From the NCBI GenBank assembly GCA_016180435.1, contig JACPBG010000002.1:1-58341 (forward strand): DNA of 58,341 nt, read 5' to 3'. This document shows positions 3,138 through 56,051 of the stretch, one piece after another (the first letter of the stretch is position 1; the number at the start of each line of letters is the position of its first letter). The translations under genes and the position numbers were made by a program. The DNA is from Candidatus Sungiibacteriota bacterium. Lineage in GTDB: Bacteria > Patescibacteriota > Minisyncoccia > Sungbacterales > HO2-52-23. The notes below the pieces were generated by a model, which did not search any database, was not told the DNA's origin, and worked only from the letters and a program-made list of their open reading frames with translations.

Positions 3138-4502
3138 ATGATGAATTCTGACATTTTTCACGCATATGATATTCGCGGGAAATATCCAACGGAAATAAAT
3201 GAGGTTGTCGCCGAGCGAATTGGAAATGCCGTAGCCCGGTATCTTTCTATCAAGCTTAAAAAAAGGCAGCTGACGTTAATTGTGGTACGGGATGTGCGGA
3301 TGTCTTCTCCGCTTTTGCAGGAGGCATTGATACGAGGAATTACGGCGCAGGGCAGTGATGTAATAGATGCTGGTATTGGCACTACGCCGTTTTTTTACTT
3401 TCTGATTCAAAAGTTTAGAGTGGATGGGGGTTTAATGGTGACGGCATCTCATAACCCCCCTGAATATAATGGGTTTAAAATTCGGGAAAAAGGCGGTGGT
3501 CCGATCTTCATGGGAACCGGTCTGGAGCGGATTAAAACAATGGTACTTTCGCAACGTGCGGTTAGAAATAGGACCGGGGAGCGGATTTTTCCGAAAATGG
3601 ATTACAAAAAAAAGTATTTTGATTTTTTAAGTAAAGGGATTGCAATTGAAAATATACGAGCTGTTATTGACGCTGCCGGTGGGAGCGTTACGTACTTTTT
3701 ACCGGAGCTCCTTGCGCGTTTTCCATCGCTTACATATAAACCTTTGTTTTTTGAGTCGGACGGAAGTTTTTCGCGCCATTCTCCGAATCCGCTTTTACCA
3801 TCCGCACAGAAATTTGTGCAAAAAGAATTAGAAACCGGACAATTTCAGTTTGGGGCAGTGTTTGATGGTGACGGAGATCGCATAAGTTTTTTTGATGAGA
3901 AAGGAAATGCAATCCGTTCCGAGTTCATATCCGCGCTTTTTATGGATGAGGAATTGAAGAGGAGACGCGGGGGTACATATGCATTTGCCGTGAATACCTC
4001 GCGCGGTGCGCGTGAATATATTGAAACCAAGGGCGGCCGGATTGTTTTTATGCCAATCGGTCCTCCACGCGCAAAAATAGTAATGCAACGCACTCATGCA
4101 CTTTATGGAACAGAATTTGCTCCACATTTCTATTTTAAGAAATTTTTCTATAATGACTCTGCTTTAATGGCGCTTTTGCGCCTCGCGCAAATTATTTCCC
4201 GAACCCATCGGCCGTTATCGCAGCTTGTTGCTCCATTTGCGCGTTATATTTCATCCGATGAAATAAATCTTTCTATAAAAGATAAAAAAGCCGCTATGCG
4301 GCGCGTTTTAGAGTTTTATCGCGGGATTCCCGGAGTAAAAATAACTAAAATAGACGGCATTAGCGTTGATTTTTCGGATTGGTGGTTTAATCTTCGGCCC
4401 TCCAATACCGAGCCGTATATTCGTTTAGTAATGGAGGCGCGGACGCAGGAGTTATATGACGAGAAAATGAAAGAACTTGAGCGGATTATCGGAAAGCATT
4501 AA
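3138..4502 (+). CDS. Second phosphomannomutase/phosphoglucomutase family paralog
   Basis: TASHNPPEYNGFK and FDGDGDR loops, 454 aa, tandem to the first paralog. Confidence 0.85.
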   Translation: MMNSDIFHAYDIRGKYPTEINEVVAERIGNAVARYLSIKLKKRQLTLIVVRDVRMSSPLLQEALIRGITAQGSDVIDAGIGTTPFFYFLIQKFRVDGGLMVTASHNPPEYNGFKIREKGGGPIFMGTGLERIKTMVLSQRAVRNRTGERIFPKMDYKKKYFDFLSKGIAIENIRAVIDAAGGSVTYFLPELLARFPSLTYKPLFFESDGSFSRHSPNPLLPSAQKFVQKELETGQFQFGAVFDGDGDRISFFDEKGNAIRSEFISALFMDEELKRRRGGTYAFAVNTSRGAREYIETKGGRIVFMPIGPPRAKIVMQRTHALYGTEFAPHFYFKKFFYNDSALMALLRLAQIISRTHRPLSQLVAPFARYISSDEINLSIKDKKAAMRRVLEFYRGIPGVKITKIDGISVDFSDWWFNLRPSNTEPYIRLVMEARTQELYDEKMKELERIIGKH

Positions 4503-47408: not shown

Positions 47409-47508
47409 CACGTGCTTCGCACGGAGAACTTAGAACTAAGAACTTAGAACCAAGCAGTTTCTAAGATCTAAGTTCTAAACGCTAAGTTCTGCGCGCGGAG
47501 TGCGCGCC
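47409..47508 (+). other. 16S insertion 1 (V1/helix 6): clamp hairpins + TAGAACT heptamer hairpin
   Basis: cgtgcttcgcacgga + heptamer hairpin 47425-47490 + gcgcgcggagtgcgcgc. Confidence 0.8.
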
Positions 47509-47591: not shown

Positions 47592-47862
47592 CCCAGCACA
47601 TATTTTTGGAAATAAATAAGCGCAGTGCGCCTGCGCTCTCATCAAGAAATACTTAGTTTAAGAGAAGGGTAATGATGACGGAAGTAATTAGTACACTTAT
47701 TAATGCACTGAAAAAAGCAGTTCTCTTTTCGCTTGTATTGAGAAACTCTCGAATGAACTTCATGGTATACCCTATGTAAACGTGAAATATCTATAACTAA
47801 TTATATATAATTATAAAAATCTGTCAAGTGTTGTTAATTTGATTCCAAAAATATGTGCTGGG
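47592..47862 (+). other. 16S insertion 2 (V2 region): 271-nt AT-rich intervening sequence
   Basis: Closed by a perfect 19-bp stem: cccagcacatatttttgga / tccaaaaatatgtgctggg. Confidence 0.8.
47653..47763 (-). CDS. Speculative 36-aa hydrophobic peptide ORF antisense to 16S insertion 2
   Basis: MKFIREFLNTSEKRTAFFSALISVLITSVIITLLLN; weak SD; may be chance. Confidence 0.15.
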   Translation of the reverse strand: MKFIREFLNTSEKRTAFFSALISVLITSVIITLLLN

Positions 47863-48111: not shown

Positions 48112-48281
48112 GCCGTGCTTCGCACGGAATGTCTAATTCCTAATTCACCTAATTCCTAATAAAATGCCCAATAAAAAAATGTCTAATGTCCAAAAACAGC
48201 TTTTGGGCTTTGGCAATTTGATATTTTGAATTTTATTAGAAATTAGAAATTAGATGTTGGAAATTTCGCGCGGAGCGCGGA
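48112..48281 (+). other. 16S insertion 3 (V3 region): same clamps as insertion 1 + TAATTCC/TTAGAAA hairpin
   Basis: 15-mer cgtgcttcgcacgga at 48114-48128, identical to 47411-47425; 3' clamp cgcgcggagcgcgg. Confidence 0.8.
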
Positions 48282-48593: not shown

Positions 48594-49390
48594 GATCGCT
48601 CGTTTGCATATTGTCCGCTCAAAAACTACGGGCTGGACAAATGGAGCCGAAAACAGAACGGGAGCCCTCCGGCAGAGCCGGTTTCCCTTGTTCTGTTTTC
48701 TCACCATTTGTTAACCAGCCCTCCGTTAATTTCGCGGAGCAATACGCAAACTCGCTTATTAGAGGGATAATAAGATGTTAAAAGTATTGTTTTTTTCGGC
48801 ACTGTTTATTGTATTCGTGGCAAAAACTAACACTAGCGAAAACAGTGTTGATATTATATTCTACAGTTTTATGTCAGGAGTTTCGTTTGTCTTAGTTTTT
48901 GTTAACATTTATTTGAAACTTAAAGCGAACCGGAAGGGTATCCGGTGAGAACAACTAGTCCCTCCGATGAAAATCGGAGATAAAATTCCACTGTATCGGT
49001 GAAAGGCCTACTGCGGAAACGCAGGGTTAACGCCGAGGCAACGCTTACACAATTTTCGAACGTTAATTACTAATTTTTAATTCGTAATTAGGAATTGGCA
49101 ATTGCGTAAGCAGAGTCCGTAGAGACTGAACGTGGAACCCAGCTCTTTGTTGAAGCAGGGCAACTTGTTTGCCCCTTTAGCAAAGAACTGGTGATGTCAC
49201 AGTCCGAACTATGCAGTAATGCATAGAGCTAATCAGAAATGCGTTAGCCGGCAGCAAGTTTTGGAATTCTGGATTTTTAAATTTCTGATTTGCTTGCCCC
49301 GTAGTGAACGTGCAACGTTCTACCATCGGGGTTTAGAAATTAGAAATTCGGATTTAGAAATTCCAAATTTGTTGCGAGCAACAAATTTGT
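48594..49390 (+). mobile_element. 16S insertion 4: about 0.8-kb putative intron in the 790 loop, no homing-endonuclease ORF
   Basis: Splits the universal AGGATT|AGATACCC. Boundaries can be drawn with U before the 5' splice site and G as the last inserted nt. Confidence 0.6.
48775..48948 (+). CDS. Speculative 57-aa two-TM peptide ORF inside insertion 4
   Basis: GAGGGA 8 nt upstream of ATG; MLKVLFFSALFIVFVAKT...VSFVLVFVNIYLKLKANRKGIR. Confidence 0.2.
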   Translation: MLKVLFFSALFIVFVAKTNTSENSVDIIFYSFMSGVSFVLVFVNIYLKLKANRKGIR

Positions 49391-49751: not shown

Positions 49752-49936
49752 CCCCCTCCAAGCCCGAAGGGCTTGGAGGCACAGATGTTCACAGATTTCT
49801 AACGGATTTTCACAGATCACAGATTCACACGGAAACCTTAACAGGCTACATCCGTAATTATCCGTGATCTGTGGTAATCTGTGGAATAATCTGTGTTAAT
49901 CCGTGGAAAACTCGTCATTGCGGGTTTGGAGGGGGG
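49752..49936 (+). other. 16S insertion 5 (helix 40 region): GC hairpin + CACAGAT heptamer hairpin
   Basis: ctccaagccc-gaa-gggcttggag, then cacagat repeats paired with atctgtg repeats. Confidence 0.8.
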
Positions 49937-50067: not shown

Positions 50068-50098
<31 letters not shown>

Positions 50099-50159
50099 AG
50101 GAATCGCTAGTAAACGCGGATCAGCTACGCCGCGTTGAATACGTTCTCGAGCTTTGTAC

Positions 50160-51087
50160 TCGGGTCGCTATGCGGTTCAATAAGCGAGCAGGTTTAAATC
50201 CTGCCAAGAAAATGCAGTTTTTTGAAGCGAAATCGCAGTCCTTCGAGGGGCGACCCTCAGGATGAAGGGCGAAAGTAGCAGCTGCCAGCTTGAATATTCA
50301 TCGAGGCGCGATACAGGCGGTGACCCTGCGAGTACATGGGGAAACCACTGCATAAAATGCCTTATCGCGTATACCGAATATCGAGACGGCAGAGAACCGT
50401 TTATTGGGTTACCATAGGAGATCTTGCATAATTCTCGTAGTATATCTATACTCGAGATAGGAACGTGGATAACTTCGTTCCAATGTTATGCAAGAAGTCA
50501 GCAGAGTTCGTAGTAGCAAGAGTGATTCTAGATGCCGCAATCCGCGGCTTCGAGCGCCTCTTGCGAAGGAACAAATTCAGGCAAAAAAACTTCATCCGCA
50601 GTATATTGCGGGATTCATTGATGGCGAGGGTTCGTTCGTCGTGAGTTTCGGGCGCCATAAAACGCTCAAGCGCGGCATTGAAATCCGCGTTGAATTCACC
50701 ATCGAACTTCGCGCCGACGACAGAGAAATTCTTTATCGGATATTAAAAACCATCGGATGCGGAAAAATTTATGACGCATCATATGAACGATACGGATGGT
50801 ATCCGCATGTCAAATATAAAATCACAAGTACCAAGGATATGGAAAAATATCTGATTCCGTTTCTGGATAAAACGCCGTTACAGGCCAAGAAGCGAAAAGT
50901 ATATAGGGTATTTCGTGAAATTGTTTTGATGGTGCGGAGAAAAGAGCATTTGACCGATAAAGGATTTAAAAAGATCTTCAGATTGCGCAACGAATATCGT
51001 AAATACGGAAAGAAGCGCCTGAAAACCGCCAGGGTACGGGAAAACCGTTCGCCCGGTGGTGTGAGACAATAAGTAAAATTGATCTTA
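50160..51087 (+). mobile_element. 16S insertion 6a: putative intron with LAGLIDADG ORF
   Basis: Begins right after conserved CTTTGTAC; ORF stop is 15 nt before ATACCGCC (51088-51095). Confidence 0.65.
50488..51072 (+). CDS. LAGLIDADG homing endonuclease (single-motif type)
   Basis: YIAGFIDGEGSF motif, 194 aa, inside 16S. Confidence 0.9.
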   Translation: MQEVSRVRSSKSDSRCRNPRLRAPLAKEQIQAKKLHPQYIAGFIDGEGSFVVSFGRHKTLKRGIEIRVEFTIELRADDREILYRILKTIGCGKIYDASYERYGWYPHVKYKITSTKDMEKYLIPFLDKTPLQAKKRKVYRVFREIVLMVRRKEHLTDKGFKKIFRLRNEYRKYGKKRLKTARVRENRSPGGVRQ

Positions 51088-51095
51088 ATACCGCC

Positions 51096-52008
51096 AATTA
51101 ATAAAGTGCCCGGCAGCTTAATTGACTAGTTGGTTAAAGTCCAACCTCCCATTGCATATGGGACGTAGCCAAAAAAATAGCAGTCCACTATCCGTAAGGT
51201 TGTGGATAAAGGGCTTGAGGCAAATGGCAGCCTATGATACGATTAGAATATTGAACGATCGCCGCGGGCGGTCAGCGGGAAGTTCAATTATTTCCATCAT
51301 AGGATGCCGGGAATAGTTAATTAAGTGACCCGGGGAGATCCTAAACAGTCGAGTCATAATACTCGTTTAGGAAGTCAGCTGGCGTCATAGTACCGAGCAC
51401 TCAACCTGCACTACGCTCGTTCTGCGTTATGCGCAGTGCAAGTTGAGTGCTCGGGAAGGAGCCAACCAAAATTATGCTATCTCCTGATTATATTGTTGGA
51501 TTGACTGACGGTGAAGGTAGCTTTACCGCATATATACGGCCACCCAAGAAAGAGCATGGTTCTAAAAATTATCGGATTGAATGTCATTATTACATAAAAC
51601 TGCGTGAAGACGACCGATCACTTTTAGAAAATGTCAAAAATTTCTTTAGAACAGGACGGGTGGTATTTCAGCGGGAAAACCGGACGAATCATCATCATAT
51701 GTATCGATTTGAGGTTACGAACTTGCATGATCTGCAAAATTTAATAATTCCTTTTTTTGAAAAACATAAACTTCAAAGCAAGCGAATTAAAGATTTTGAA
51801 TTATTCAAGAAGATCGTTAAAGCGGTACTGAATAAAGAACATCAAACCGAAAATGGATTGCGAAAGATTCAACAATGGAAAAAGAAGATGCATCAATATA
51901 TGGGCTCGCCGAATACGGGAAACCCGTACGTTCGGTCTCGATATAGAAAGTCGAGGGTTCGATTAAAGAATCGGACTGGAAACGGGAAATAGACTCAATT
52001 ATCCCAAT
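51096..52008 (+). mobile_element. 16S insertion 6b: second putative intron with LAGLIDADG ORF
   Basis: ORF stop is 17 nt before conserved CCGTCACG resumes at 52009. Confidence 0.65.
51447..51992 (+). CDS. LAGLIDADG homing endonuclease (single-motif type)
   Basis: YIVGLTDGEGSF motif, 181 aa, inside 16S. Confidence 0.9.
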   Translation: MLGKEPTKIMLSPDYIVGLTDGEGSFTAYIRPPKKEHGSKNYRIECHYYIKLREDDRSLLENVKNFFRTGRVVFQRENRTNHHHMYRFEVTNLHDLQNLIIPFFEKHKLQSKRIKDFELFKKIVKAVLNKEHQTENGLRKIQQWKKKMHQYMGSPNTGNPYVRSRYRKSRVRLKNRTGNGK

Positions 52009-52330
52009 CCGTCACGTCAAGGAAGCCGGGAGTAGGTGAAGGCTGTCGCAAGACAGTTCAATCTAAACTCGGTGACAGGGACGAAGTCGTAACAAGGCAT
52101 CCCTAGCGGAAGCTGGGGATGGAACAATCTTTTTAGGGTTATATTCGAGCAAAGCATCAAGAAATCCGGATAAAACCGGATACGCTTGGAGAAGGCCCTC
52201 CGTTCTAACAAGAATGCGGTTTTCTCTCGCATTTGCTCACTACCTTAGGTTGATACCGCAATTTTTTGCGGGAATAAGTGTTGATCTCTAACTTTCAAAT
52301 GGAGATCGTGCGGATCCGTCGCTAACGGAT

Positions 52331-55949: not shown

Positions 55950-56051
55950 TGCGCGCACTAGGGATCGAACCTAGGACCTCGTCATTATCAGTGACGCGCT
56001 CTGAGCTATACACCCGTAAAAAGGTGGGAGGGCCAGCTGAGCTATGCGCGC
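55950..56051 (-). tRNA. tRNA-Ile(GAU)-like gene with a 37-nt D loop (about 28-nt insertion)
   Basis: GCGCGCA/TGCGCGC acceptor, GCTC/GAGC D stem, CGTCA-CTGATAA-TGACG anticodon arm, CTAGG-TTCGATC-CCTAG T arm; function uncertain. Confidence 0.5.

Follow-up and report, generated by a model that had tools for sequence, protein, structure and literature searches.

Evidence for two tandem LAGLIDADG-encoding group II introns around a micro-exon in the 16S rRNA gene of a Candidatus Sungiibacteriota bacterium

Group II introns that bear a LAGLIDADG gene are rare outside mitochondria, and the most recent survey lists one bacterial family (PMC13190283). According to Tsurumaki et al. (2024, PMC11270868), LAGLIDADG-encoding group II insertions at about position 1400 of the 16S rRNA gene are already known from bacteria of the candidate phyla radiation (CPR, Patescibacteria): at the site 16IS9 (~position 1400), 53 group II-like insertions were counted, 39 of which contain LAGLIDADG open reading frames (ORFs). 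Here we describe a locus of this kind in a DNA stretch of 58,341 nucleotides, hereafter called the window, from a Candidatus Sungiibacteriota bacterium (GenBank assembly GCA_016180435.1, contig JACPBG010000002.1, positions 1 to 58,341 of the forward strand). The bacterial 16S rRNA gene of the window extends from 47339 to about 52134 and contains many insertions, which is typical of CPR bacteria. The subject of this analysis is an interruption of 1.85 kb near position 1400, which very probably consists of two autonomous, IIC-like, LAGLIDADG-encoding group II introns (intron 1 and intron 2) flanking a genuine exon of the sequence ACCGCC. The evidence comprises the anatomy, the boundaries and the homology of the two elements, covariation, relatives that carry only one of the introns, and the reproducibility of the junctions in independent assemblies.

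Both introns share with the 16IS9 elements the host clade, the gene region, the Rfam group II signal, LAGLIDADG_1 proteins of a single domain and the absence of a reverse transcriptase; both introns belong to this population (PMC11270868). The survey treats 16IS9 as one site defined by alignment with E. coli, whereas we distinguish two families here, whose sites (~1397/1398 and ~1403/1404) are separated by 6 nt and are both occupied in one gene; neither a tandem case nor a micro-exon is mentioned in the searched parts of that paper. The bacterial family of the more recent survey is the rns-1396 group IIC-LAGLIDADG homing endonuclease (LHE) family of Thiotrichaceae, which was found in four genera (Liu et al. 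2026, PMC13190283). Its host phylum differs, and the CPR families, the site of intron 2 in particular, lie outside the scope of the 2026 survey (PMC13190283). Like intron 1, the rns-1396 intron resides in a bacterial 16S gene and has IIC-type features; by description, its insertion point lies within one base of that of intron 1 (numbering ~1397/1398). In domain IV it encodes a single-motif LHE related to the fungal I-OnuI-type clade, as are the LHEs encoded here; an EBS2 (exon binding site 2) is not reported for rns-1396. Reportedly, the Thiotrichaceae intron was also described by Salman et al. in 2012.

With respect to the short exon, the nearest bacterial counterpart is the gene for 23S rRNA in Coxiella burnetii, where two group I introns flank an exon of 34 bp (Raghavan et al. 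2007, as cited in PMC11270868). There, as here, two self-splicing introns are located close to each other with a short exon between them, but the Coxiella introns are group I rather than group II, and the exon has 34 bp instead of 5-6 nt. Mini-exons between self-splicing introns are common in mitochondria (PMC10352661), where MFannot defines them as shorter than about four codons, and the placozoan cox1 gene contains an exon of 1 bp (PMC5436844). Whereas organellar exons go down to 1 bp, the exon of 5-6 nt described here is part of a bacterial rRNA and corresponds to the whole intron binding site 1 (IBS1) of the downstream group II intron. Three aspects appear to be new in the searched literature, namely that the CPR "position 1400" site can be split into two families at two sites, that the two are occupied together, and that a bacterial exon of 5-6 nt equals the complete guide target of the downstream intron.

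A preliminary description of this DNA, made from the letters of the sequence, had proposed two intron-plus-LAGLIDADG elements around a micro-exon at the decoding centre, and the finding that each element occurs alone in relatives confirms this proposal. Its landmarks were also correct: the conserved 16S strand ...GAATACGTTCTCGAGCTTTGTAC, with CTTTGTAC as its last part, ends at 50159, ATACCGCC is located at 51088-51095, and CCGTCACG resumes at 52009. The two halves, described as equally built and about 0.92 kb long, measure 928 and 913-914 nt and can be aligned; the two elements are homologous and diverged, the proteins encoded by ORF1 and ORF2 being 31% identical. The exact boundaries had to be revised. 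Among 41 distinct relatives that carry intron 1 only, the TC at 50160-50161 is invariant, and in relatives that carry intron 2 only it is contiguous within TTGTACTCACCGCC; it is therefore exonic, and exon 1 ends two bases after 50159, the end given previously. The 2 nt that precede ACCGCC differ among the 41 relatives (AT, AA, GA, GT, CT, CA, TT), which is why the AT at 51088-51089 is assigned to the 3' end of intron 1. A micro-exon of 8 nt (ATACCGCC) is thus replaced by ACCGCC with 6 nt. This hexamer is joined to exon 1 where intron 1 is absent and to exon 3 where intron 2 is absent, and these junctions of the single-intron relatives fix the anatomy of the boundaries in the window. On the basis of these comparisons we place the end of exon 1 at 50161, intron 1 at 50162-51089 and the micro-exon at 51090-51095; the introns are 6 nt apart, and the hexamer between them is regarded as a genuine exon. 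One C is common to both junctions of intron 2, whose limits are consequently 51096-52009 or 51095-52008, with a micro-exon of 6 or 5 nt (ACCGC).

The predicted spliced strand, UUGUACUCACCGCCCGUCACG (UUGUACUC-ACCGCC-CGUCAC), has the universal length, equals the contiguous sequence of the relatives and has zero mismatches to the 16S sequence of its own lineage. The single mismatch that had been noted in the joined sequence vanishes once the boundaries are corrected. The 16S numbering used here rests on C1400, G1401, C1402 and A1408, which are the standard landmarks of the E. coli sequence. Every CPR locus seen has a U in place of the near-universal A at E. coli position 1396 (50160 in the window), giving TTGTAC-T-CACCGCC; this statement covers the loci L001-L046, L054-L061 and L182-L196 of our collection, including those without intron 1. 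U1396 pairs with an A of the exon binding site 1 (EBS1) of intron 1; it may be either a general CPR trait or the footprint of a co-conversion with intron 1.

A genome scan based on ORF1 gave 46 CPR loci, among them 41 distinct sequences with one intron, which read TTGTACTC, intron, ACCGCCCGTCA. Loci with intron 2 only read GAATACGTTC...TTGTACTCACCGCC, followed by an intron of the second type and the junction AAT/CCGTCA ((C)CGTCA). The carriers of intron 2 alone are six other lineages: Sungbacteria (L054 and others), L189, Nealsonbacteria (L190), L191/L192, L195 and L196. A comparison with relatives that have only one of the two introns, which the preliminary description had recommended as a check, could thus be made for both elements (41 cases for intron 1, six lineages for intron 2). 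The tandem state was observed in none of the 41 distinct intron 1 lineages and in none of the six other intron 2 lineages inspected. This includes the closest relatives: a single intron is present in all of L182-L188, whose LHEs are 84-88% identical to that of intron 1, and likewise in all of L054-L061 and L189-L196, which are closest to intron 2. A metagenome-wide pattern scan for the 5' junction of intron 2 (ACCGCCN{6,12}GTGCCCGGCAGC) returned only chance matches in GC-rich genomes. Co-occupancy with a tiny exon appears to be rare; among the lineages inspected, it was found in this organism only.

The coordinates of all ribozyme elements are listed in Table 1. In intron 1, the long-range helix I(i) consists of CUAUG (50168-50172) and CAUAG (50413-50417). 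Nucleotide 6-7 of the intron is where the helix begins, which is the canonical position for group II introns, and the relatives have more than 12 compensating versions of it, e.g. CCAUG/CAUGG, CCGUG/CACGG, CCUGG/CCAGG, CUUGG/CCAAG and CUGCG/CGCAG. Due to this covariation, the 5' end of intron 1 is considered near-canonical, and a linker is assigned to intron 2 only. Two other interpretations of the 5' end, local hairpins (UGC-NNN-GCA) and AUGCG as a displaced GUGYG behind a linker, were dropped in favour of the covarying helix. The IBS1 of intron 1, UGUACUC, is invariant in the relatives with the exception of L016 and L182. In L016 the exon reads UGCACUC and EBS1 reads GAGUGCA, which is a compensatory change; in L182 the exon sequence UGUGCUC gives a G·U pair with EBS1. 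The compensatory change in L016 places the 5' splice site of intron 1 after TC. The hexamer GGCGGU at 50316-50321 of intron 1 was considered as a binding site for the micro-exon and rejected, since the relatives differ at this position (e.g. GGGCGAU or UUGACGA). Domain V of intron 1 has 14 base pairs, which are formed to 100% in 350 cells (25 distinct sequences). Seven of these pairs show compensatory changes, none of 500 shuffles matched this result, and all slid controls collapsed; the CGC triad, the G·U wobble and the 2-nt bulge are invariant. In domain VI, A51082 is bulged 7 nt before the 3' splice site, with the same geometry in at least 24 relatives, and the stems covary (GAGA/UCUC, AGGA/UCCU, UGG/CCA and others).

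Intron 2 contains the same elements. Its helix I(i) is formed by CCCGG (51109-51113) and CCGGG (51330-51334) and covaries to CUCGG/CCGAG in L189 and to CCUGG/CCAGG in L191. The distance from the 5' end of the intron to this helix is 11-14 nt, as compared to 5-6 nt in intron 1, and about 7-9 extra, variable nucleotides, a 5' terminal linker, lie between the splice site and GUG. Such linkers in mitochondrial LHE introns of subclass IIB1 are said to have been treated by Li et al. in 2011 in RNA, too. The loop that contains EBS1 is invariant in an alignment of the window with four relatives, whereas its stem covaries (CGCC/GCGG, CUGC/GCAG, CUCU/AGAG, UUCU/AGAA). Domain V shows a compensatory change from C-G to U-A among seven family members; the two extra hairpins that follow it are present in six of the seven and absent in L191. 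In domain VI, A52001 is bulged and conserved 7 nt before the 3' splice site, with stems GGGA/UCCC, GAGA/UCUC and GAGC/GCUC. LHE-encoding group IIB1 introns of fungal and algal mitochondria resemble intron 2 in having an rRNA host gene, a LAGLIDADG ORF in place of the reverse transcriptase and a 5' linker; these introns, however, often lose the branch-point A if they have a linker, whereas the covarying domain VI of intron 2 has retained its bulged A (PMC13190283).

Table 1. Coordinates of the predicted exons, ribozyme elements and ORFs in the window
Feature	Position	Strand	Remarks
16S exon 1, last 7 nt UGUACUC	50155..50161	+	E. coli ~1391-1397; IBS1 of intron 1; complementary to EBS1 GAGUACA
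Intron 1, IIC-like group II, 928 nt	50162..51089	+	16S ~1397/1398; RF01998 match; 41 homologous introns at the same site
Intron 1, 5' terminus GGGUCG and 5' strand CUAUG of helix I(i)	50162..50172	+	near GUGYG; covarying helix
Intron 1, EBS1 GAGUACA	50330..50336	+	hairpin loop, covarying stem; same place in nearly all 42 family members
Intron 1, distal domain II, J2/3 linker (AGAAGUCAGCAGAG), domain III	50458..50571	+	RF01998 match
ORF1, 194 aa, single-motif LAGLIDADG_1	50488..51072	+	E=7.6e-20; PF00961 72.2 bits
Intron 1, domain V ACCGCC-A-GGGU-ACGG-GAAAA-CCGU-UC-GCCC-GGUGGU	51025..51060	+	CGC triad, G·U wobble, 2-nt bulge
Intron 1, domain VI GAGACAAU...AUUG-A-UCUU and 3' end AAU	51063..51089 (stem-loop to 51086)	+	bulged branch-site A at 51082
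Micro-exon ACCGCC	51090..51095	+	16S ~1398-1403; 3' exon of intron 1 and IBS1 of intron 2
Intron 2, IIC-like group II, 913 nt	51096..52008	+	16S ~1402/1403/1404; six other lineages carry intron 2 alone there
Intron 2, 5' linker (AAUUAAUAAA), GUG, 5' strand CCCGG of helix I(i)	51096..51113	+	pairing with 51330-51334
Intron 2, EBS1 GGGCGGU	51266..51272	+	complementary to ACCGCC and first C of exon 3
ORF2, 172 aa, single-motif LAGLIDADG_1	51474..51992 (upstream GTG 51447)	+	E=3.9e-18; PF00961 66.7 bits
Intron 2, domain V CGCCGAAU-ACGGG-AAA-CCCGU-AC-GUUCGGU	51907..51936	+	CGC triad, G·U wobble, AC bulge; aligns to Rfam Intron_gpII
Intron 2, two extra hairpins between domains V and VI	51937..51977	+	minimum-free-energy fold
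Intron 2, domain VI GGGAAAU...AUU-A-UCCC and 3' end AAU	51984..52008 (stem-loop to 52005)	+	bulged A at 52001
16S exon 3, (C)CGUCACG... to gene 3' end	52009..52134	+	Rfam SSU_rRNA_bacteria alignment from CCGUCACG to model position 1533

Judged by these structural features, both elements are group II introns and not group I introns. The Rfam model group-II-D1D4-1 (RF01998) matches intron 1 at 50458-50571 with 46.8 bits, the gathering score being 35. This score is reached by nine out of 12 scanned relatives of the intron 1 type and by two out of six relatives of the intron 2 type, namely L196 (40.0) and L055 (36.0). A CGC triad and a short domain I (~250 nt) are features bearing on the assignment to subclass IIC, and we regard both introns as small and IIC-like in kind. 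Intron 1 begins with GGGUCG, its relatives begin with GGGUG, which agrees with GUGYG at four of five positions, and its 3' end is AU. In intron 2, GUG is found only about 10 nt inside, behind the variable linker, and the intron ends with AU or UC, depending on the one-C ambiguity. Both introns seem to resemble the group IIC ribozyme of Oceanobacillus iheyensis, which we take to have a helix I(i) GUGUG-CCCGG...CCGGG, AGAAGUCAGCAGAAGUCAUAGUACC in J2/3-domain III, a CGC triad and a domain V ending with ...GGUGGUGUG. The O. iheyensis intron belongs to a reverse transcriptase lineage and inserts after terminator hairpins, whereas the introns described here encode LAGLIDADG proteins, target an rRNA gene and have an IBS1 of 6-7 nt.

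Each half contains one single-motif LAGLIDADG ORF, in agreement with the preliminary description; the scores are above the PF00961 cut-off of 23.1 bits, with one domain per protein. The stop codon of ORF1 (51070-51072) lies 15 nt before ATACCGCC, as had been stated; for ORF2 (51990-51992), however, the distance to 52009 is 16 nt and not 17 nt. The motifs are FIDGEGSF in ORF1 and LTDGEGSF in ORF2, and both intact ORFs keep the acidic residue (...DGEG...). Hundreds of CPR homologues exist for both proteins. For ORF1, 666 were found, nearly all of them from CPR bacteria and the best with 88% identity; ORF2 is 83% identical to a Sungbacteria protein from intron-2-only loci, and its ATG start (51474) is conserved in the relatives. 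The nearest solved structures belong, for both proteins, to the group of I-OnuI, I-SmaMI and I-LtrI. From sequence, both are predicted to be single-motif LAGLIDADG homing endonucleases with cleavage activity. ORF1 has a conserved AUG in J2/3, spans domains III, IV and V and stops in the loop of domain VI; ORF2 reads through domain V and the two extra hairpins and also stops in the loop of domain VI. Because the ORFs overlap functional ribozyme elements, much of each intron is under a dual constraint at the levels of RNA and protein.

Several points weigh against the interpretation as two spliced group II introns. Splicing, ligation and the mature sequence are predictions made from DNA. Intron 2 of the window stays below the Rfam thresholds, with 23.5 bits against 35 for group-II-D1D4-1 (51322-51461) and 25.3 bits against 40 for the match of Intron_gpII (domains V-VI) at 51904-51976. 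A perfect GUGYG start is absent from both introns, and in fungal introns a 5' linker accompanies hydrolytic rather than branching splicing (PMC13190283). A covariation between J2/3 and the last intron base, which was sought in order to fix the one-C ambiguity of intron 2, was not found; J2/3 is invariant. A further difficulty concerns the endonucleases. As a rule, a LAGLIDADG homodimer recognises about 10 bp to the left and to the right of the cleavage position. Each intron is thus expected to remove about half of the ~20-bp site of the other endonuclease, that is, all but 6 bp of one half-site.

These points have to be compared with the merits of other explanations. The 1.85 kb might represent a single composite intron, either a twintron or an intron with a duplicated endonuclease module, in which the internal ACCGCC is a chance match. 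Indeed, 1.85 kb of sequence should by chance contain a one-mismatch match to ACACCGCC: the window contains 45 such matches, compared to 33.7±6.4 expected, which by itself is the level of chance, and a second one, AAACCGCC at 51023, lies inside the same region. The claim of a micro-exon therefore rests on its context. This context makes the composite intron very improbable. Each half has a complete set of helix I(i), EBS1 and domains II, III, V and VI; many relatives possess just one of the halves, located at precisely one of the two sites and with ACCGCC directly joined to the adjacent exon; and without ACCGCC the rRNA would lose positions 1398-1403. The tandem arrangement could also be a chimera, assembled from one population with intron 1 only and another one with intron 2 only. 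The two single-intron forms do occur in nature, and at this locus metagenome assemblies fall apart into contigs of about 1 kb. The join common to both forms, however, has only 6 nt, which is far below the k-mer length of any assembler, and for this reason a chimera is not credible. Moreover, both introns are covered by L047, a contig of 2031 nt that stems from another run and matches 50069-52099 with 100% identity. Five more contigs from other runs (L048-L051 and L053) span the junction of intron 1, ACCGCC and intron 2 with 100% identity, and on one side they include 53 nt or more of intron 1; L052, which lies wholly inside intron 2 and exon 3, is also 100% identical.

The preliminary description had implied group I introns by suggesting an Intron_gpI search. 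This would be in line with the fact that LAGLIDADG genes usually reside in group I introns and that, according to PMC11270868, most CPR rRNA introns are group I. A permissive Rfam scan across 50100-52150 gave no match to Intron_gpI (RF00028) at E<=10, whereas group II models do match. In addition, the 5' exons end in C and not in U, the introns end in U (or C), and domains V and VI as well as the EBS1-IBS1 pairings are backed by covariation, so that two group I introns with LAGLIDADG genes are extremely improbable. Somewhat less remote, yet still unlikely, is the explanation that the insertions are not spliced and religated; they would then be cut out, leaving a fragmented 16S rRNA, or the gene would be a decaying pseudogene with relic ribozyme features. 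Certain insertions in CPR rRNA genes correspond to no intron model, and what becomes of them is described as unknown in PMC11270868; the 16S gene of the window contains at least five further insertions without a match. On the other hand, the exon sequence is undamaged and does not differ from that of the relatives, both ORFs are intact, and dozens of lineages conserve the CGC triad, the G·U wobble, the bulged A and EBS1, with compensatory changes; excision without ligation would, furthermore, cost the rRNA a 6-nt piece of the decoding centre. We therefore prefer the reading as two autonomous group II introns.

What follows on splicing and its order, on endonuclease activity and on the arrival of the second intron is inference. 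EBS1 of intron 1, GAGUACA, would bind UGUACUC at the end of exon 1 and join exon 1 to A1398, and EBS1 of intron 2, (G)GGCGGU, would bind the micro-exon and join it to the C run of exon 3. Either order would lead to the same product. Since A1398-C1403 would be needed both as 3' exon of intron 1 and as IBS1 of intron 2, simultaneous catalysis is unlikely, and ordered splicing of the two introns is the natural expectation. Given domain V and the adenosine that bulges from domain VI 7 nt before the 3' splice site, splicing of the lariat type is to be expected, with less certainty for intron 2 because of its ~7-9 extra 5' nucleotides. Because a reverse transcriptase is encoded by neither of the introns, the LAGLIDADG proteins are presumed to mediate homing at the level of DNA: each intron would spread through its own homodimeric single-motif endonuclease. 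The two intron families are separate lineages that normally occur singly, and the organism studied here has both. Due to the expected loss of half-sites, ordinary homing explains the double state poorly, and another route would be needed. A tolerant enzyme, a rare recombination event or reverse splicing guided by the ribozyme, which depends on the short IBS1 only, are conceivable routes. A more far-reaching model, which we offer tentatively and consider rather doubtful, would see in this locus the first bacterial micro-exon, a decoding-centre piece of 5-6 nt between two autonomous group II ribozymes that are spliced in order; the second intron would have arrived not by ordinary homing but by reverse splicing into an IBS1 of 6-7 nt or by means of an endonuclease recognising the intron-containing site, and the pair would now move as one unit.

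CPR bacteria have at least two such families, which can co-occur and whose sites lie in the most conserved small-subunit rRNA strand at a distance of 6 nt from each other. The locus offers a test case for the questions of how a tiny exon can serve two ribozymes, by which means a second homing element enters after the first one has destroyed the site of its endonuclease, and whether ribozyme-based and protein-based mobility cooperate. There are also practical consequences: when rRNA is annotated by alignment with E. coli, both introns are merged as a single insertion and the bases of the exon are put in the wrong place, and the primer region 1390-1400 is split in these organisms.

Besides the two introns, the 16S gene of the window contains five further insertions at ~47420-47500 (81 nt), ~47603-47852 (250 nt), ~48121-48279 (159 nt), ~48597-49388 (~790 nt) and ~49755-49920 (~165 nt). 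None of them has an internal ORF of at least 80 amino acids or a match to an Rfam family. The insertion of ~790 nt splits GGATT and AGATACCC at about position 788-790, a site that houses group II-LHE introns in fungal mitochondria; the Rfam scan of this insertion (~48597-49388) gave nothing above noise and no group II signal. The insertion of ~165 nt is made of CACAGAT/ATCTGTG inverted repeats. At its 3' end (52115-52134), the 16S gene reads GGATGGAACAATCTTTTT, and the anti-Shine-Dalgarno sequence CCUCC is absent. The Sungbacteria relatives L054 and L189 end with GGAACATTTCTTTTT or GGAACATATTCTTTTT, and the Uhrbacteria locus L007 retains GGATCACCTCCTT. A 23S gene does not follow the 16S gene within the window; the sole tRNA gene of the window, tRNA-Ile(GAT) at 55950-56015, is encoded on the opposite (-) strand, ~3.8 kb downstream of the 16S gene.

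Some of the related loci show additional features. In Nealsonbacteria (L190), a group I intron (Intron_gpI, 74.6 bits) at positions 3604-4046 lies near the 3' end of the 16S gene, which also contains an element of the intron 2 type. Two relatives (L183:1264-1836 and L184:1200-1772) possess an extra LAGLIDADG_1 ORF in the helix 44 region, ~110 nt after the element of the intron 1 type. Finally, L027 (CAZKQS010000118.1), which is labelled as a metagenome-assembled genome of an uncultured Thermoplasmatales archaeon, contains a bacterial 16S 3' region of the CPR type with an element of the intron 1 type and is probably mis-binned.

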